Shown: positions 4,669-49,349, counted from the first letter of the stretch. The stretch: 64,000 nt of DNA from Corynebacterium sp. (GCF_052107835.1 NZ_JBQEDF010000012.1:161-64160); one strand, 5' to 3'. The notes: generated by a model not told the origin, from the sequence alone. Made by a program: numbers and translations.

Positions 4669-6318
4669 TCACCTGGCCGACTGCTGGTCCCTCTTGCTGA
4701 TCTTGCCCACCCCGGTCAACGGGAACTCGTCGACGATGTCGATGGCATCCGGCACCGCGAAGCTCGCCAGGCCGTGGTCACGGGCGTACTTGCGCAGGGT
4801 GGTGTGGGTGAGACCGGCATCGGTGGATGACACGGAGCCCCGGGGGATGACGAACGCCCGGATCCTCTCGCCGAGCAGCTCGTCCTCCATCCCCACCACG
4901 GACACGTCGTGGACACCGGGGTGGGTCAGCAGGACATTCTCGACCGCCTCGGGGGCGATCTTCTCACCGCCGCGGTTGATCTGGTCCTTGGCCCGCCCCA
5001 CCACGGTCAGCGTCCCGCCGGTGAACACCACGATGTCGCCGGTGCGGTAGAAACCGTCGGAGGTGAAGGAACGTTCGTTCACCTCCGGCGCGCGGTGGTA
5101 CCGGCGGATCGTGTAGGGCCCGCGGGTCAGCAGGTGTCCCGGCTGCCCCTCCGGGACGTCACGGTCCGCGTCGTCGACGACGCGGATCTCGTCGTGGGGG
5201 CTCATCGGACGGCCCTGGGTGGAGACGATCTCCTCGATCGACGCGTCCAACGGCGTGTAGTTCACCAGCCCCTCGGCCATGCCGAAGACCTGCTGCAGGT
5301 TCCACCCCAGTTCGGGACGCACCCGTCTGGCCGCCGCCTCGGACAGTTTCGCCCCGCCCACCCACACGGTGCGCACTGCGGAGACGTCGTGGGCGTCGCG
5401 CTCCGGGGAGTTCAGCAGGCTGATCAGTGCCGGCGGTACCAGGGCGAGATGGGTCACCCGGTGACGTTCAATCAGGGGCAGGACCGTGGTGGGCATGGGG
5501 TCCGGGGCGAACACCATCGTGGCTCCGACCTGGACCGCGCCCAGTATCCCCGGCGAGCTCATCGTGAAGTTGTGGGACGCGGGCAGGGCGACGAGCAGGA
5601 CGTCGCCGTGTCCCAGGTCGCAGACGTCGATGGAGGCACGGACGGAGTAGAGGTAGTCGTCGTGGGTCTTCGGGATCTGCTTCGGTACCCCTGTCGTCCC
5701 ACCGGAGAGCTGGAGGAAGGCCAGTTCGTCCGCGCGAACCTCCGCGGGTTCGGGGGCGTCACCGGGCTCGGCGGAGCTCCAGGGATCAGCCGCCTGCTCG
5801 TCAACGAGGATCATCGAGACCGTCGGACCGTCCTCCAGCGGTGCGGTGAGATCCCTGTGGACCCGCTTCAGGTGCCGGTTCGGTCGTGCAGTGCTGAGGT
5901 AGAACGTGGCGGGGGCATGGGTCGCGAAGTGCCGGATCTCCTGGGAACCGTGCGCGGGCAGGGAGAACACCGGGATCGCACCCAGGCGCCAGACGGCGAA
6001 GACCGCCTCCAGGTAGGCCACGGCGTTGGGCATCTGGACGATCACGCCGTCCCCGCGTGAGATTCCCGCCCGCGACAGGACGGTGGATGCCCGGGTCACG
6101 CCCTCGTCCAGTTCCCCCCAGGTCACGGTCCGGGACGCGTCGGTGGCGGCGGTGTCGTCCGTCCACGTGTCCGCGGCCCGCCGGAACAGCTGCCAGTGGG
6201 TGTCGCCGTTCCATACACCGAGGTCGCGGTAGTGTTCCGCGGCCTCGGCGGGTACGCCGGTGGCGAGCACTCCGGTGCGGGGCTCCGGGCCGGTGGAGAT
6301 GTCGGGGAGGGTGGTCAT
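4669..6318 (-). CDS. Aryl-acid (2,3-dihydroxybenzoate/salicylate)-AMP ligase, DhbE/EntE/MbtA family
   Basis: FLQLSGGTTGVPKQIPKTHDDYLYS (A3), HNFTMSSPG, YRTGDIV, GGEKIAPEAVE and GKISKRD (A10) are typical of stand-alone aryl-adenylating enzymes. The start MTTLPD at 6318 forms an ATGA overlap with the NRPS stop; the ORF-track start 6456 is an over-extension. Confidence 0.88.
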   Translation of the reverse strand: MTTLPDISTGPEPRTGVLATGVPAEAAEHYRDLGVWNGDTHWQLFRRAADTWTDDTAATDASRTVTWGELDEGVTRASTVLSRAGISRGDGVIVQMPNAVAYLEAVFAVWRLGAIPVFSLPAHGSQEIRHFATHAPATFYLSTARPNRHLKRVHRDLTAPLEDGPTVSMILVDEQAADPWSSAEPGDAPEPAEVRADELAFLQLSGGTTGVPKQIPKTHDDYLYSVRASIDVCDLGHGDVLLVALPASHNFTMSSPGILGAVQVGATMVFAPDPMPTTVLPLIERHRVTHLALVPPALISLLNSPERDAHDVSAVRTVWVGGAKLSEAAARRVRPELGWNLQQVFGMAEGLVNYTPLDASIEEIVSTQGRPMSPHDEIRVVDDADRDVPEGQPGHLLTRGPYTIRRYHRAPEVNERSFTSDGFYRTGDIVVFTGGTLTVVGRAKDQINRGGEKIAPEAVENVLLTHPGVHDVSVVGMEDELLGERIRAFVIPRGSVSSTDAGLTHTTLRKYARDHGLASFAVPDAIDIVDEFPLTGVGKISKRDQQSAR

Positions 6319-19939: not shown

Positions 19940-20959
19940 CTACAGCTGCGGCCCGAGTTCCGGGTCCTGCCCGGTCAGCGCGGCGCGTCCGATGACGGCG
20001 AGCTTGTCACGGCGGCGTTCGTGCAGGGTGTGGGTGCGCAGGTCGCGCCAGTGACGGTCGAGGTCACTGTTCGCCGCGGTGCCGCGGGTTCCGGTGAGTT
20101 CGAAGATGCGGGATGCCAGGTCCACGGTGAGTCGACCGGTCGTCACTTTCGCCGCGGCGACCTGCAGGGAGACGGTGGCCGGATCCGCGTTCCCCTCCCA
20201 CAGGTCATCCAGCGCCCGGCCCGCCTTCTCGACCACGGCCTCGGCGGCGAAGCGTTGGGCGACAAGTTCCCCGGCGAGATGGGCGGTCAGGGGATCGGGG
20301 TCGGCGGAGGCCGTCAGTTCCAGCGTCGCGTCCAACGCCGCCCCGGCGATGCCGACGTCGATCGCTGCATGCAGGAGCTGAGCGAAGACACCGTAGCCGG
20401 GGAGGGTCAGCGCATCGTCGAAGGCACGGACGTCCTGCTCGTCGACGGCGACGTTGTCGAACTCCACCGTGCCGGAACCGGTGAACTCCTGGCCGAGTGC
20501 GGACCAGTCGTCCACCACCCTCAGGCCGGGAGTGTCAACCGGGAGGAACACGCCGAGGCTCTGGGTGTCCTCGCCGGGACGCCGGGCGGTGACCACGACG
20601 ACATCGGCGTAGATCGAGCCGGTGCAGAAGATCTTCCGGCCGTTGAGCACGCCGTCGTCGAGGATGACGGGCTCACGTTCGGCCTGGGCGTTGGCGATGA
20701 GGGTGCCGCCGAGCAGCCGGTCCGCCCAGTGTTGCTCGGTGCCGGGATGGGATCCGTCGAAGAGCCAGCGGCTGAAGGTCATGTGGCTCTGCGGGATCTG
20801 TCCCAGGGAGCCGTCCCCGCCGGCGAGGATGCGGAACGCCTCCGCGATGGCGGAGGCGGGGTACTCCGGGCCGCCCAGCCGGGCGGGCACCGTGGCGGCG
20901 AGCAGGCCGGAGTGTTTGAGCCGGATGACAGCGTCGGCGACCTGTGCGGCGCGGTTCAC
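19940..20959 (-). CDS. Acyl-CoA-dehydrogenase-fold flavin monooxygenase, SfnB/DszC-like (short N-terminus)
   Basis: 339 aa from GTG 20959 (GTGA overlap with the sfnG stop). Contains LKHSGLLAATVPARLGGPEY and GRKIFCTGSIYADVVVV...VDDWSALGQEFTGSGTVEF. The ORF-track N-terminal extension overlaps sfnG in another frame. Confidence 0.75.
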   Translation of the reverse strand: MNRAAQVADAVIRLKHSGLLAATVPARLGGPEYPASAIAEAFRILAGGDGSLGQIPQSHMTFSRWLFDGSHPGTEQHWADRLLGGTLIANAQAEREPVILDDGVLNGRKIFCTGSIYADVVVVTARRPGEDTQSLGVFLPVDTPGLRVVDDWSALGQEFTGSGTVEFDNVAVDEQDVRAFDDALTLPGYGVFAQLLHAAIDVGIAGAALDATLELTASADPDPLTAHLAGELVAQRFAAEAVVEKAGRALDDLWEGNADPATVSLQVAAAKVTTGRLTVDLASRIFELTGTRGTAANSDLDRHWRDLRTHTLHERRRDKLAVIGRAALTGQDPELGPQL

Positions 20960-45015: not shown

Positions 45016-46106
45016 AGCTGAACCACCTTCCTGCGGACCAGCATGTAGATGAACATCGGGGCGCCGACGAAGGCGAGCACGATACCGACCTGGAGTTCCC
45101 CGGGCCGGGTGATCAGCCGTCCGAGGACGTCGGCGTAGAGCAGAAGGCACGCCCCGCCGAGTGCGGAGTACGGCAGTATCCACCGGTAGTCCGGTCCGGT
45201 GACCGACCGCACGAGGTGCGGCACCACCAGTCCGAGGAAGGCGATCGGCCCGGCGGCCGCGGTGGCTGCGGCGGCCAGCAGGGCGATGACGACCATCCCG
45301 ACGAGTCTGGCGATCCTGGTGTTCACCCCGAGGGAGGACGCGACGTCGTCGCCGAGGTTGAGCAGGTTGAGCTGCGGGCCGGTGGCGAAGGCCAGGATGA
45401 GGCCGATGAGGATGACCGGCAGGACTCCCCAGAACACGCCCATGTCGCGTCCGGAGACGGAGCCGACGGTCCAGAAGCGCATGCGGTCGAGGTTGCTGTC
45501 GTCGGTGAGGACCATCGCACTGATGATGGCCTGCAGTACGGCGTTCATCGCGGCGCCGCCGAGGATGAGGGTGAGGGGGTGGACGTTGCCGCCGCCGACG
45601 GAGGCGAGTCCGAAGACGGCGGCGGTGGCGAGGATCGCGCCGAAGAACGCCCAGACGGCGGTCATCCCGGTGCTGGTCACGTTGAAGACGGCGAAGCTGA
45701 TGACCACGGCCAGGGCGGCTCCCGAGGAGATGCCGAGGATGCCGGGGTCGGCGAGCGGGTTGCGGGTGTGGCCCTGGATGAGGGCGCCTGCGACGCCGAG
45801 GGCGGCGCCGACGATGATGCCGATCAACGTCCGGGGGAACCTGAGTTCCACGATGACCTGCAGGTCGGGGTCGGTGATGTCGTCCGAGCCGATGGCCCCC
45901 GGCACATCGCGGAGGCGGTCGAGGAGCACGTCGGTGGGGATGATGCGTGACCCGAAGGCGAGGCTGAGTCCCATGCCGATGACGAGCAGCACCAGCAGGA
46001 CGACCAGCCCGAGCAGACGTCGGCGTCTCAGCTGGGAGGCCGCGGACGGGGCTGCGGTGTCCGCGTGTGGTCCGCCCGGGGCGGTGGCGGTTGTGCCCGT
46101 CGTCAT
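45012..46106 (-). CDS. Iron-siderophore ABC transporter permease (FepD/FecC-like)
   Basis: 364 aa with ...RFPRTLIGIIVGAALGVAGALIQGHTRNPLADPGILGISSGA..., the FecCD family signature. Confidence 0.88.
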   Translation of the reverse strand: MTTGTTATAPGGPHADTAAPSAASQLRRRRLLGLVVLLVLLVIGMGLSLAFGSRIIPTDVLLDRLRDVPGAIGSDDITDPDLQVIVELRFPRTLIGIIVGAALGVAGALIQGHTRNPLADPGILGISSGAALAVVISFAVFNVTSTGMTAVWAFFGAILATAAVFGLASVGGGNVHPLTLILGGAAMNAVLQAIISAMVLTDDSNLDRMRFWTVGSVSGRDMGVFWGVLPVILIGLILAFATGPQLNLLNLGDDVASSLGVNTRIARLVGMVVIALLAAAATAAAGPIAFLGLVVPHLVRSVTGPDYRWILPYSALGGACLLLYADVLGRLITRPGELQVGIVLAFVGAPMFIYMLVRRKVVQL

Positions 46107-46161
46107 TGGACCCCTTCCGGTCGTCAGAAAACGGGCGGGGACACAGGCCCCTCGCCCGAGG

Positions 46162-46180
46162 ATAGGTTCACCTTACGGTG
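46162..46180. promoter_or_regulatory. DtxR/IdeR-like iron-box candidate upstream of the permease-ATPase-SIP operon
   Basis: ATAGGTTCACCTTACGGTG matches TWAGGTWAGSCTWACCTWA at about 13/19, with a perfect TAGGTT left arm. It lies 56 nt upstream of the start at 46106. Confidence 0.4.
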
Positions 46181-46280
46181 TGCCTGACGACCGTGCAATA
46201 CGACGGCCCAGCCTGAATCCCCGTGAATGAGGAACGGTCACGGAGTCACCTGGGCGTGCGTACTGTGTCCGGGAAATGGA

Positions 46281-46541
46281 TCAGAAAGGGAGCTTCGGGA
46301 GCGGCGGCAGCTTGATGTCCAGGGCGTTCATGAGGCTGATGATCGACGCCACGGCACCGGCCACGGTGCCGACGCTGCCGATGACGCCCAGGGGGTTGTC
46401 GGGGAGCTCGATGGAGCTGCCGCCTTCGCCGTTCTCGCTGGAGCCGGGGAGTCCGGTGTCCTCGGCGGTGGCGACGCCGGCTCCGGCGAAGGCGACGGTG
46501 GTGGCGGTGGCGATGGCAAGGAACGACTTCTTGAGCTTCAT
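46281..46541 (-). CDS. Small secreted/envelope protein, paralogue a (86 aa) of a four-gene family I could not assign
   Basis: ATG 46541 behind the SD AGGAGA. Signal peptide MKLKKSFLAIATATTVAFAGAGVATA|ED. Gly/Ala/Ser zipper stretch GVIGSVGTVAGAVASIISL. Pro-rich tail KLPPLPKLPF. Confidence 0.65.
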   Translation of the reverse strand: MKLKKSFLAIATATTVAFAGAGVATAEDTGLPGSSENGEGGSSIELPDNPLGVIGSVGTVAGAVASIISLMNALDIKLPPLPKLPF

Positions 46542-46861
46542 GTGGCTTCTCTCTCCTGGAAACGTGATGCGCGGGGTGCGCAGCGCTGGACACATCGTGG
46601 TTGTTTCGGGAGGGAACGTCCACTGACGCGGGAGGTGGTTGTGACGGCAGAAGGGTATTCCACGGGGCCTGGGAGGGCGTCGGTGCGGTGGGCGCGCCGG
46701 GTGCCCGGCGGGAAGCCGGTGGTCGGACGTACCGGGGTGGAGGCCGCACATTTTCAGCCCGAACATGCGGTCGCAGAAGGTGGTTGCCGGGGAGGGGGTG
46801 CGGGACCAGGGGGCTTCCCGGATGCTGTCATGCTGCAGGTCACAGCGGTTAAACATCTGTG

Positions 46862-46897
46862 GACACAACAAAACCCCCGGCCTCTCGGGCGGGGGTT
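46862..46897 (-). terminator. Rho-independent-type terminator after paralogue b
   Basis: Hairpin aaccccc(g)g...cgggggtt at 46872-46897, followed on the minus strand by TTGTTGTGTC. Confidence 0.55.
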
Positions 46898-46930
46898 GTG
46901 CGTACCGTGATGACGGTTCGGAGACGGGAA

Positions 46931-47188
46931 TCAGCCCTGTGCGCCGAGGAACGCGAGGGTGTCCTCGATGACGCCCTGGAAGCTGTCGGAGGCGTCGACG
47001 ACCGCTCCGAAGGCTCCCGTGATATCGCTGATGTTGTCGGCGGCATCGCCGAGATCACCCAGAGAGCCGATCGGGGCCGGGTCCTCCGGCTCTTCCGGCT
47101 CATCCTCCTGGGCGGCAGCCATGCCGGTGCCGGCGAGGGCGAGGGTCGACACGGTGGCGGCGGTGAACAGGGTTCTGCGGATCTTCAT
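46931..47188 (-). CDS. Small secreted acidic protein, paralogue b (85 aa)
   Basis: SD AAGGAG 8 nt upstream. MKIRRTLFTAATVSTLALAGTGMAAA|QEDEPEEPEDP... The C-terminal module AFGAVVDASDSFQGVIEDTLAFLGAQG aligns with paralogues c and d. Confidence 0.7.
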   Translation of the reverse strand: MKIRRTLFTAATVSTLALAGTGMAAAQEDEPEEPEDPAPIGSLGDLGDAADNISDITGAFGAVVDASDSFQGVIEDTLAFLGAQG

Positions 47189-47240
47189 GTGTGGAGCTCC
47201 TTGCGAGCGGATCGGTGGTGAGGGGTACGCGCTGGAAATT

Positions 47241-47283
47241 CAACAACCCCCGGCATCCGGAAACCGGGGACGGGGGTTGTTGG
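47241..47283 (-). terminator. Hairpin terminator after paralogue c
   Basis: Perfect 11-bp stem caacaaccccc/gggggttgttg enclosing an inner ccgg-aaa-ccgg hairpin. It lies 22 nt past the stop at 47305. Confidence 0.55.
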
Positions 47284-47304
47284 GGTGTCCGTGTGGACAG
47301 CGGC

Positions 47305-47667
47305 TTACAGGAAGCCGTTGGCTTCGAGCCACCCGGTCGTGTTGGACACGACCTCCTGCCAGGTGTCGGACGCGCCGACGACGGCGTCGTAGGCCTCGGC
47401 GACCGCACCGATGGAGGCGGCGCCACCGGCAACGGATGCCAGGGCGATCAGGACCTTGCTGTAGTCGATCTGGCCGTCGGTGTAGGAACCGAGGTCGTCG
47501 GCACCGGTGATGGAGCCGAAGACGTCGCGGTTCTGGGACAGCTCGGCGGAGCCGGCGGTGGGCGTGCTGCCCTCGGGCAGGTCATCCTGTGCAGAGGCGA
47601 CGCCGGTACCGGCGATGGCGATGGCGGAAACCGATGCGAGGGTGACGAAAGTCTTGCGAACCTTCAT
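47305..47667 (-). CDS. Small secreted acidic protein, paralogue c (120 aa)
   Basis: Strong SD GAAGGAGAG. MKVRKTFVTLASVSAIAIAGTGVASA|QDD. The mature part is about 65 % identical by eye to paralogue d. Confidence 0.75.
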   Translation of the reverse strand: MKVRKTFVTLASVSAIAIAGTGVASAQDDLPEGSTPTAGSAELSQNRDVFGSITGADDLGSYTDGQIDYSKVLIALASVAGGAASIGAVAEAYDAVVGASDTWQEVVSNTTGWLEANGFL

Positions 47668-47879
47668 ATTGGTGTCTCTCCTTCTTGAGGATCGTCGTTG
47701 GAGGGGTGGGACGAATCCGAAACTAACACGGGGGAGAGGGGTGCGAAACAGATAGGATCAGGACGAATTGCAGGGCAGGTACACGCCGGGGTATGCGATC
47801 CTTAATTTGCCTGAGAACCTATTGGGACCTGCGAAAATGGCCCCTGGGGTATGCCATGAATGGACCCCGGGGTATGAAG

Positions 47880-47906
47880 AAACCCCGGTCCAGGAGACCG
47901 GGGTTT
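47880..47906 (-). terminator. Hairpin terminator after paralogue d
   Basis: Perfect 11-bp stem aaaccccggtc/gaccggggttt with a 5-nt loop, 40 nt past the stop at 47946. Confidence 0.55.
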
Positions 47907-47945
47907 CAGCTGATTCTGTCGCCTGTTGGCGGAGGGGGAGCGTCC

Positions 47946-48302
47946 CTAGAGAACGCCCTGGCTCTCGAGGAAGCCGATGGTGTCGGAGACCACGCCCTGC
48001 CACGTGTCGGACGCGCCCACGACGGCGTCGTACGCGCCAGCGATGGCGGCCACGGAGGCGGCGCCACCAGCGATGGAGGCAAGGGCGATGAGGGTCTTGC
48101 CGTAGTCGATCTGGCCGTCGGTCCAGGAACCGAGGGCGTCAGCGCCGGTGATGGAGCCGAAGACGTCGCGCTCGGCGGAGGCGTCGGCGGATCCCTGGGT
48201 GGGAGGGGTGTCCGGAGTGTCCTGTGCTGAGGCAACGCCGGTGCCAGCGATGGCGAGGGTGGTGGCGGCGCCAGCGGCCGCCAGGCTCTTCTTGACAGAC
48301 AT
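47946..48302 (-). CDS. Small secreted acidic protein, paralogue d (118 aa)
   Basis: ATG 48302 (the ORF-track start 48428 is over-extended). MSVKKSLAAAGAATTLAIAGTGVASA|QDT...DVFGSITGADALGSWTDGQIDYGKTLIALASIAGGAASVAAIAGAYDAVVGASDTWQGVVSDTIGFLESQGVL. Confidence 0.75.
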   Translation of the reverse strand: MSVKKSLAAAGAATTLAIAGTGVASAQDTPDTPPTQGSADASAERDVFGSITGADALGSWTDGQIDYGKTLIALASIAGGAASVAAIAGAYDAVVGASDTWQGVVSDTIGFLESQGVL

Positions 48303-48974
48303 AATGTTCCTCTGAGTATGTGAGGGTTCAGGGTCGGTCATTAACTTAGTGCACGCTGAGTCTCCCGAATACAGGAAATTTCCAGCTTGCCCACATGTGG
48401 GGGTAGGTATATTTGCACATGTACCCACCGGGGTATTCAGAACCTGTCGCCCGGGTCCGACGGTTGAGGCACTTTCCGTCGCGGTTGTTTCGTTCCGGCT
48501 CCGCGGTCCTTCGGAAGTGCATCACCGATGTGGTCCGTGAAAACCCCTGGGGAAGGGTGTGATCTCTGGTGTTTCTGTGTCCTGGCAGGGGCCGCGGATC
48601 CTTTCCGTGGCCGTCGCAGTGCGCGGTGGTGCCCGGGGGATTGCGGTCGCAGGGGCAGTCCATTGAAAGGTGAGCCTCACCTGCAATAACAGAGATTCCG
48701 GAAGGTGAACAACAGATGTCGGGAATGTTAAGGTTCCGGGGTGAGGGGGTGGAGTTTCCTGATGTCCCGCCCCTGATGCTTACGTCCTGCGTCCCGGGTC
48801 TGTCCTGCCACGGTTTTTGTTCCCCGTCACCGGAGGTGGCATACTTGGGCGGTTGCCTGTGGTCCGCGGGGAGACGTACGTCCCCCGCACGACCGCGTGA
48901 AGGCACGGACCGCGTGCGTGAGGGTCGGTAATCCCACGTACACAGAACTACTAGGTCTACAAGGAGACTCCGAA

Positions 48975-49349
48975 GTGATTCAGCAGGAATCGCGTCTGAA
49001 GGTCGCCGACAACACCGGAGCCCGGGAAATCCTGGTCATCCGCGTGCTCGGCGGCTCCACCCGACGCTCCGGCGGTATCGGTGACGTCGTCGTCGCCACC
49101 GTCAAGGAAGCAGCCCCCGGTGGGAACGTCAAGGCCGGCGACATCGTCAAGGCCGTCATCGTCCGCACCAAGAAGGAGACCCGTCGTCCCGACGGCTCCT
49201 ACATCGCATTCGACGAGAATGCCGCCGTCCTGATCAAGGGCGCCGACAACACCGACCCGCGCGGAACGCGCATCTTCGGGCCGGTCGCCCGCGAACTGCG
49301 CGACAAGCGCTTCATGCGCATCGTTTCTCTCGCCCCGGAGGTGCTCTAA
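48975..49349 (+). CDS. rplN: 50S ribosomal protein L14
   Basis: GTG 48975 behind the [37 protein letters not shown]... is the canonical L14 N-terminus. The ORF-track start 48897 is over-extended. Confidence 0.96.

Follow-up and report, generated by a model that had tools for sequence, protein, structure and literature searches.

The window analysed here is a 64,000-nucleotide (nt) stretch of Corynebacterium sp. DNA (GCF_052107835.1, NZ_JBQEDF010000012.1:161-64160), with positions counted from its first letter. Between rplN and a siderophore operon it carries an array of four small genes, which we call a to d, all on the minus strand. Gene a (46281-46541) encodes a precursor of 86 amino acids (aa) with a 60-aa mature part of net charge -5, and gene b (46931-47188) a precursor of 85 aa with a 59-aa mature part of net charge -15. 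The products of c (47305-47667) and d (47946-48302) are longer, with precursors of 120 and 118 aa, mature parts of 94 and 92 aa, and net charges of -12 and -10, respectively. An earlier reading of this DNA, made by a model from the sequence alone (hereafter the sequence-only reading), had called the same four open reading frames (ORFs) and described Cys-free, acidic mature products; both descriptions hold. The four genes belong to an undescribed, unnamed, lineage-restricted family of small exported acidic helix proteins. Their products may be signal-peptide-bearing relatives of the PorH/PorA channel peptides, a link that is weak. We found no family member in the window beyond a to d; an ORF at 20055-20378 that was considered as an additional member is an off-frame artefact.

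Genes a to d are real genes under selection, as indicated by their codon composition and substitution pattern. The G+C content at third codon positions (GC3) in the called frame is 0.92 for a, 0.85 for b and 0.87 for both c and d. GC3 is this high in the called frame only, and the values are like those of the flanking FecCD permease, rplN, rplX and rplE genes (0.85-0.93). Comparisons with paralogues and orthologues gave ratios of nonsynonymous to synonymous substitution rates (dN/dS) of 0.24-0.53 for b, c and d (0.40 for c) and 0.81 for a. Coding statistics had been put forward as a check in the sequence-only reading, and they support coding. Strong Shine-Dalgarno sequences (SDs; GGAGAG, AAGGAG, GAAGGAGAG and AGAGGAA) precede all four genes.

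Three of the genes also have their own terminator-type hairpin, in each case on the minus strand. The intrinsic terminator 3ʹ of d (47879..47907) consists of 13 perfect pairs followed by UUUCUUCAU (-32 kcal/mol, z -3.74), and that 3ʹ of c (47241..47282) is followed by UUGUUGAAUUU (-34.5 kcal/mol, z -4.45); both were also detected in a terminator scan. A terminator-like hairpin with a U-rich tail lies 3ʹ of b (46863..46903) and is weaker than those of c and d (-27.3 kcal/mol, z -1.9). Neither the scan nor folding revealed a terminator hairpin downstream of a. The intergenic spacers a-b, b-c and c-d are 389, 116 and 278 nt long. Since b, c and d have their own terminators, we agree with the sequence-only reading that these are separate units with individual SDs, and not an operon. 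At the DNA level, the signal-peptide-coding regions form a 58-nt direct repeat, D2, on the minus strand (48220..48277 in d, 47585-47642 in c, 47106-47163 in b and 46459-46516 in a; 71-74% identity), and a second repeat, D1, between c and d, is 267 nt long with 77% identity. A search of the long spacers revealed no gene relics (best tblastn match, E 0.058), and an Rfam scan of 45900-49100 gave no match.

Database searches identified no known family. Pfam has no family that matches a to d at E ≤ 10; NCBIfam, PADLOC and PHROGs gave no meaningful match; PDB sequences were unmatched in single-sequence and in profile searches; and Foldseek returned 0 matches against the PDB at E ≤ 10. The proteins had been described as unassignable to a family, and they remain so. 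A word-indexed search with d retrieved 81 proteins, all from Corynebacterium and hypothetical where named, which come from C. variabile, C. nuruki, C. glyciniphilum and their relatives. An exhaustive profile search of 1.84 billion representatives retrieved 40 proteins at E ≤ 0.001, all of them small Corynebacterium proteins. In a scan with one genome per species, the c/d type was present in 10 of 185,579 species, and in all 10 genomes it is located at rplN, which answers a question about linkage raised by the sequence-only reading. We conclude that the array draws on a fast-evolving gene pool limited to one Corynebacterium lineage.

How are the four genes related to one another? The products of c and d, which had been proposed as clear paralogues, are 67% identical (E 2e-40). 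The C-terminal 26 aa of b are 58% identical to the corresponding part of d (BLASTP E 1e-8), as expected from the earlier suggestion that b keeps only the C-terminal module. With signal peptides removed, comparison of the c/d profile with the b profile gave an hhalign probability of 98.5% (E 3e-15). By these sequence comparisons, b, c and d are established as true homologues. The status of a as a further paralogue is only partly upheld. It shares with b, c and d the signal peptide, the D2 repeat and the overall build, but profile comparison does not demonstrate homology between its mature part and c/d (hhalign 28%, E 6e-4). By position, gene a is orthologous to the final array gene ahead of FecCD in six related loci (alignment A3), and the a-type orthologues have a GILGS motif, a hydrophobic helix of the NITTVISLI type and often an LPKLPF tail. 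P0091 and P0127 are orthologues of b.

Across the related loci, small proteins of the same build fall into four types: e, c/d, b and a. The e type is related to c/d with an hhalign probability of 91.7% (E 8e-7). A Pro-rich tail that ends in Phe (LPKLPF, LPALPF, FPLPF or IPNFPF) recurs in a-type and e-type proteins; it is found in gene a of the window (46281-46310), in P0105, P0118, P0092 and P0094, and at 5308-5607 of locus L003. The sequence IQLPKLPF is identical in the a-type protein P0105 and the e-type protein P0118. This tail may be a sorting or anchoring signal that is mobile between array members.

The products of all four genes share a common plan. Each precursor begins with a 26-aa signal peptide that ends in an AxA motif (ATA|ED, AAA|QE, ASA|QD and ASA|QD), and the Lys/Arg-rich n-regions, Ala/Thr-rich h-regions and cleavage motifs are as previously listed. 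The signal peptide is followed by a disordered, strongly acidic linker rich in Gly, Ser, Asp and Thr with conserved (F/L)GS motifs, and then by a C-terminal α-helix. In a, c and d the helix is Ala/Gly-rich and moderately hydrophobic. In b, c and d it ends in a conserved acidic module, A[YF]xAV[VI]xASDx[FWY]QGV[VI]xDTxxFL. The product of b has the C-terminal helix module AFGAVVDASDSFQGVIEDTLAFLGAQG, common to c and d; the linker of d is disordered and acidic, with FGS and LGS motifs; and the product of a combines an acidic Gly/Ser linker with the hydrophobic helix VIGSVGTVAGAVASIISLM and a Pro-rich tail, LPPLPKLPF.

The signal peptides suggest export by Sec. Among 161 small proteins (the family and its distant look-alikes), the n-region pair is KK in 113, RK in 29 and KR in 4, i.e. 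KK, RK or KR in 146, and RR in 1. Twin-arginine motifs are therefore not a general feature; protein b of the window does have RR (MKIRRTLF). Because the n-region pair is almost always KK, RK or KR, export via Sec is more likely than export via the twin-arginine (Tat) pathway, as the sequence-only reading had assumed.

An AlphaFold2 (AF2) model of d, built with 29 homologues, shows a signal helix, disorder at residues 27-60 and one continuous 48-residue helix at residues 67-114, with the predicted local distance difference test (pLDDT) score climbing to 82-90 over the last 30 residues. For a, the model has a helix at residues 50-75 only, with low confidence (pLDDT 55). The monomer model and the Foldseek comparison, both proposed by the sequence-only reading, are consistent with an unassigned family: d is modelled as a single long helix, with no match in the PDB. 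The hydrophobic stretch of a, c and d spans ~19-22 residues with a mean Kyte-Doolittle value of ~2.0; for the best 19-mers of these proteins, the Hessa sums are +1.4 to +1.9 kcal/mol. These sums are similar to, and no better than, those of the proteins' own signal-peptide h-regions. Hence, the hydrophobicity of the helix is marginal for plasma-membrane retention, i.e. as a stop-transfer segment. With a Hessa sum of +11.3, the product of b lacks such a hydrophobic segment. The helices of c and d run on into a 27-residue tail with a net charge of about -4.

Conservation peaks in the hydrophobic helix. Several serines are also conserved: Ser42 is present in 29/29 aligned sequences, Ser38 and Ser98 are present in at least 90%, and Ser38, Ser42, Ser50, Ser59 and Ser98 are all conserved in an eight-sequence alignment. 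The conserved serines lie in FGS, LGS and ASD contexts, which are flexible and rich in small residues (Gly/Ala), and are candidate lipidation sites. O-mycoloylation sites have been reported in flexible Gly/Ala-rich contexts without a strict motif (PMC11066868), and the modification has no consensus motif (PMC11066868, PMC5310785).

The array occupies a fixed place, and its content shifts. In this window, as in all related loci that we examined, the array is divergent from rplN-rplX-rplE and is followed by a FecCD-FecCD-ABC-SIP siderophore operon; its position between rplN and the FecCD operon is shared by the window and 16 further species-level loci. Orthologues are kept at this place in more than 10 species. 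The sequence-only reading had described the neighbourhood of rplN as highly transcribed; the link to rplN is conserved as a position, and it says nothing about expression. Loci with c/d-type genes contain two to five small genes of the four types: e, e, c/d, c/d, b in C. variabile; e, c/d, a in C. glyciniphilum; c/d, b, a in L024, the closest relative; two c/d genes in L026, a C. nuruki-like locus; and d, c, b, a in this window. We regard it as established that the proteins have a common build, that b, c and d are paralogues, that the distribution is narrow, that the position at rplN is fixed and that the copy number turns over.

The closest relative gives an indication of how array members may change. 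The sole c/d gene of L024 (5001-5366) is a mosaic, with a c-like 5ʹ untranslated region (UTR), signal peptide and C-terminus, and a d-like linker, TPDTPPTQGSADASAERD. Because it mixes parts of c and d, this gene suggests gene conversion or recombination between array copies. In a metagenome variant of the same relative, an insertion sequence element with an rve-type transposase (L025 3989-4945) lies between rplN and the array. The ~70 nt directly upstream of rplN are near-identical between the window (48900-48974) and L024 (4084-4160), and the remainder of the spacer cannot be aligned; the near-identical stretch is probably the leader or promoter region of rplN.

Three metagenome contigs, C. 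auriscanis and a metagenome-assembled genome (MAG) assigned to C. kroppenstedtii contain more distant look-alikes, which also adjoin rplN. These combine a signal peptide with an acidic linker rich in Ser, an FFGW motif and a hydrophobic helix. Their profile matches are marginal only, and their homology to c/d is not established by hhalign comparison. In L021 and L022 the look-alikes occupy the opposite strand between rpsQ and rplN. The shared position at rplN suggests that the locus is old and that its sequences turn over very fast. The look-alikes at L017 5121-5480, L021 6001-6294 and L023 872-1177 end in GSSN, GSSM or SLSS, which recalls the C-terminal NFSS of PorH/PorB and the penultimate-serine mycoloylation site of ProtX (PMC5310785). 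In the C. kroppenstedtii-assigned MAG, a few kb past rplE, two small genes flank a 60-aa gene with a match to Lantibiotic_a (PF14867; L019 1744-1926). The locus is not genus-wide, because two species have unrelated neighbours of rplN. In C. striatum this neighbour, a protein of 296 aa, combines a signal peptide with a hydrophobic C-terminal stretch and looks by eye like a sortase substrate; in the other species it resembles a multi-pass transporter by eye, with no match in Pfam.

Sequences upstream of the genes are partly shared between species. In the region upstream of c (47668..47729, minus strand), an extended -10-like box, gTGtTAGTTT, is accompanied by a C-rich leader, CGTCCCACCCCTCC...GATCCTCAAGAAGGAG, which is kept in c/d-type genes of other species. 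Comparison of upstream regions placed a related leader before b (47189-47231, minus strand). Across 14 c/d-type genes, plus L024, the comparison yielded a leader of the form TGnTAnnnT ... CGTACC ... CCCCTCAC ... GATCC ... AAGGAG that is common to c/d- and b-type genes of different species; it is conserved upstream of the c/d-type genes in L003, L007, L012, L015, L016 and L024. The CCTC of the leader could pair with the SD. Folding of the conserved 5ʹ UTRs gave no sign of a stable structure: z is near 0, and the predicted folds are no stabler than those of shuffled sequences.

A DtxR-like operator, TAAGGTGAACCTATCCTCG, matching 13 of 19 consensus positions, lies on the minus strand at 46157-46175, between a and the start of FecCD (46106). 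It is identical in sequence and position in eight related species. In a scan for DtxR boxes, a box was found only before the FecCD gene and none before the small genes. Hence, the siderophore operon FecCD-FecCD-ABC-SIP is probably under iron control.

We also scanned for promoters of the type used by sigma-D and sigma-H (G[GT]AA[CT]-N17-20-G[AT]T) in the 250 nt upstream of 49 small genes from 17 loci, for which the background is 0.064 matches per 250 nt. The motif was present upstream of 2/49 genes, both e-type genes of C. variabile-type genomes. The C. variabile e-type gene has GTAAC-N17-GTT at -86, and the e-type gene of sister species has a conserved GTAAC ~85-95 nt before the ATG. The only match in the window, an ECF-type promoter-like motif, GGAAC-N19-GTT, at 48711-48737 on the minus strand, points towards d from ~410 nt upstream and is at chance level. 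It lies inside the 672-nt spacer between d and rplN, where sister species hold a PorH-like e-type gene. A search of this spacer for an e-type relic gave nothing convincing (best tblastn match, E 0.058, 48592-48696).

What are these proteins for? The sequence-only reading had pointed to a likeness to the small channel-forming peptides PorA and PorH. The C. glutamicum PorA and PorH sequences that we used as queries were checked against the curated models, with 83.5 bits to NF033925 for PorA (cut-off, 50 bits) and 39.5 bits to NF033938 for PorH. In a direct alignment, d scored 54 with PorA, compared with 26 ± 5 for 5000 composition-preserving shuffles (p ~5e-4), and VGASDTWQGVVSDTIGFL of d aligned with LGASSKWAGAVADLIGLL of PorA at 10/18 identical positions. 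For a, b and c, the corresponding p values were 0.004-0.015. When PorA was used as a query against 1000 ORFs of the window (at least 30 aa), the top match was gene d (E 0.014).

The similarity to PorH involves the e type. A PorH query against 3523 ORFs from 18 loci had five best matches, all of them e-type proteins. A profile of the C-terminal 50 residues of e-type proteins scored 10.7 bits with PorH, a score reached by 0/20,000 shuffles, and the hhalign E value was 0.002. This alignment is ungapped over 38 columns and covers PorH residues 8-45. Among ~4,530 real ORFs searched with the e-type profile, PorH ranks level with the family's own c/d paralogues. Genes a to d have no direct PorH similarity. 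The PorH signal is more consistent than the PorA signal, and the comparisons suggest a chain in which PorH resembles the e type in a weak but specific manner, the e type resembles c/d well, and c/d resembles b strongly. Weak similarity is not surprising, because known PorA-type porins, PorACj of C. jeikeium and PorACur of C. urealyticum, share only 10% identity (PMC5944148).

PorH (Cgp_3009) resembles the products of a to d in being small (57 aa), acidic, Cys-free and α-helical; it is a corynebacterial envelope peptide that acts as an oligomer, and the mature products of a and b (59-60 aa) are of similar size. PorA (Cgp_3008) is a leaderless peptide of 37-45 aa with a mycoloylated Ser15, whereas the mature products of a to d have 59-94 aa and are preceded by 26-aa signal peptides. 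More generally, PorA, PorH and ProtX have no recognizable signal sequences (PMC12632848). ProtX, which has 38 aa and no signal sequence (PMC5310785), was considered as a relative and rejected. The NF033937 model of PorH has 97 positions, and C. glutamicum PorH covers only 44-84 of these; the length of the model implies that a longer PorH subfamily, with ~43 extra N-terminal residues, is already catalogued.

Sec-type signal peptides are found in PorB/PorC, the anion channel of C. glutamicum and its paralogue. Mature PorB is expected to have about 99 aa, from a 126-aa precursor. The mature products of c and d are close to this size, at 92-94 aa. The precursors of PorB and PorC, with Sec-type signal peptides, have 126 and 123 aa, compared with 120 and 118 aa for c and d (PMC5310785). 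PorB and PorC are small α-helical mature proteins with Ser-rich flexible ends, are encoded by adjacent paralogous genes and are O-mycoloylated (PMC5310785). Genes c and d have in common with them a Sec precursor of ~120-126 aa and an adjacent paralogue. The two systems differ in other respects: porB and porC form a single transcription unit, unlike b, c and d with their individual terminators, and PorB is a compact four-helix domain with a disulfide bridge (PMC5310785), whereas the products of a to d are Cys-free and the AF2 model of d has one long helix.

We propose that a to d encode small helical proteins that resemble PorH/PorA, are exported by Sec and reside in the mycolate outer membrane, a reading to which we assign a probability of roughly 0.4. 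The precursor would pass the plasma membrane via Sec, and the signal peptide would be cut at the AxA motif. Because the helix is too weakly hydrophobic for a firm stop-transfer anchor, the mature protein would then be released towards the outer mycolate membrane. There, several copies could pack as oligomers and form small channels or membrane-embedded anchors, as PorH and PorA do; this packing might come after O-mycoloylation of a conserved serine. For a to d, we infer the export route, mycomembrane location, oligomerization, lipidation and channel activity from these resemblances. A bolder form of the proposal places the array in the PorH/PorA superfamily, as a branch that depends on Sec. 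In this lineage, short channel helices would have been joined to a classical signal peptide and an acidic linker, and would have expanded into a varied gene set that provides the main channels of the mycomembrane in the C. variabile/glyciniphilum/nuruki clade. We regard this as unlikely.

Several observations weigh against a relationship with known porins. None of the curated models of PorA (NF033925), PorH (NF033937/NF033938) and PorB was matched at E ≤ 10 by a to d, by C-terminal fragments of 10 members or by 10 e-type proteins; by the curated models, membership of PorA/PorH thus fails. No PorA similarity was seen in the c/d orthologues of other species, and a profile of the c/d and b module reached only p 0.003 with PorA. 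The likeness proposed by the sequence-only reading therefore survives as a weak, specific similarity, and not as family membership. This window lacks the PorH-like e-type gene. PorH itself has no signal peptide and is encoded with porA between groEL2 and ppk2 (PMC12632848, PMC5944148); the array lies at rplN/FecCD, away from the porH-porA operon at groEL2-ppk2 (PMC5944148). A relationship to PorB is not supported by fold or sequence, since a to d have no match in Pfam, PDB sequences or Foldseek; PorB/PorC or another known family had been named as an identification that would explain the array away, and profile and structure searches gave none. A sigma-D/sigma-H-type promoter is absent within 250 nt upstream of a to d. 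The glycine/alanine-zipper helix envisaged by the sequence-only reading was not borne out: helical periodicity is insignificant for conservation (p 0.12) and for hydrophobicity (p 0.48), and hence no channel-lining face is evident. Lastly, a look-alike, whose homology to c/d is not established, is present in the MAG assigned to C. kroppenstedtii; work cited by PMC3219685 describes this species as being without mycolic acids.

The alternative that survives best is that the products are single-pass type I plasma-membrane proteins with the acidic linker outside, perhaps serving as accessories of siderophore uptake or as a cation-binding layer. The length and Kyte-Doolittle hydrophobicity of the stretch in a, c and d would suit such a protein, and look-alikes linked to rplN have a Lys-rich tail (FQKIADSFKK or FQKIEKLFK) after their final hydrophobic helix, an arrangement that fits the positive-inside rule. 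A role in siderophore uptake would agree with the genomic context, since the arrays nearly always adjoin siderophore genes, either FecCD/ABC/SIP or SIP with siderophore synthesis. However, b lacks a hydrophobic segment altogether, and the Hessa sums of the others are marginal for stop-transfer. Type I topology would also place the 27-residue tails of c and d in the cytoplasm, where their acidic charge breaks the positive-inside rule. The conserved DtxR-like box precedes FecCD and not the small genes, and L021 and L022 have no iron genes near their small genes, which are located between rpsQ and rplN. We therefore consider this topology improbable.

Two further explanations are somewhat less probable still, and we do not rank one above the other. 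The first is that a to d encode freely secreted acidic peptides, used in competition (Sec-dependent and bacteriocin-like), in signalling, or in cation or surface binding, and diversifying quickly under selection between strains. Small, signal-peptide-bearing, multi-copy genes whose number and type turn over rapidly between species are consistent with this, as are the relatively high dN/dS values (0.24-0.81), the mosaic structure of c/d and the soluble appearance of b, with its net charge of -15. Membrane-active bacteriocins are usually cationic, however, and a to d are strongly acidic. No genes for immunity, processing or dedicated export lie in or beside the array, the PADLOC and PHROG libraries are unmatched, and the array has a stable position in the core genome rather than on a mobile island. 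The peak of conservation in the hydrophobic helix also argues against freely secreted peptides.

The second is that the proteins are non-porin secreted proteins of the envelope-stress response, for example helpers of mycomembrane or cell-wall assembly, and are positional equivalents of cg0607 of C. glutamicum. In that species cg0604 is rpsQ and cg0608 is rplN, so that cg0607 lies between them by locus tag (PMC1578569). The annotation of cg0607 is that of a hypothetical secreted protein, and its promoter, GGAAC-N18-GAT, is phenol-induced and depends on sigma-D and sigma-H (PMC6338062, PMC11588781). The sigma-D regulon also includes cmt1, which encodes a protein O-mycoloyl transferase, and porA, porH and protX (PMC11175481). 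Like the array, cg0607 thus adjoins rplN by locus tag and is annotated as secreted, and it belongs to an envelope-integrity regulon (PMC6338062, PMC11175481). The arrangement rpsQ - small gene - rplN recurs in L021, and the GTAAC-N17-GTT of the C. variabile e-type gene is a motif of the appropriate kind. By contrast, the promoter type of cg0607 is not found upstream of a to d, and the sole motif of the window (48737-48711) is both distant from d and at chance level. The likeness of cg0607 to the array is a positional analogy by locus tag, and the neighbours of rplN in C. striatum and another species are of a different kind. Finally, GC-rich DNA gives many long ORFs in all frames and the dN/dS of a is 0.81, but chance ORFs or decaying remnants are almost certainly not the explanation, given the frame-specific GC3, the SDs of all four genes and terminators of b, c and d, the positionally conserved orthologues of more than 10 species and the dN/dS below 0.55 of b, c and d.

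What would PorH/PorA-like proteins with ordinary signal peptides mean for corynebacteria? Very few proteins of the corynebacterial mycolate membrane are known, and the export and assembly of small helical porins is an open question. A PorH/PorA-like helix joined to a normal signal peptide would be a tractable handle on export, lipidation and assembly. If the proposed relationship is true, a PorH/PorA-type helix would be able to enter the mycomembrane after ordinary Sec export, and a Sec-dependent branch would be a natural experiment on how the leaderless PorA, PorH and ProtX cross the plasma membrane. Such a family would also add candidate permeability determinants for cheese-surface and gut corynebacteria. 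Even without a link to porins, the array represents an unnamed family and a conserved hot spot at rplN for the birth, shuffling and loss of small secreted genes.

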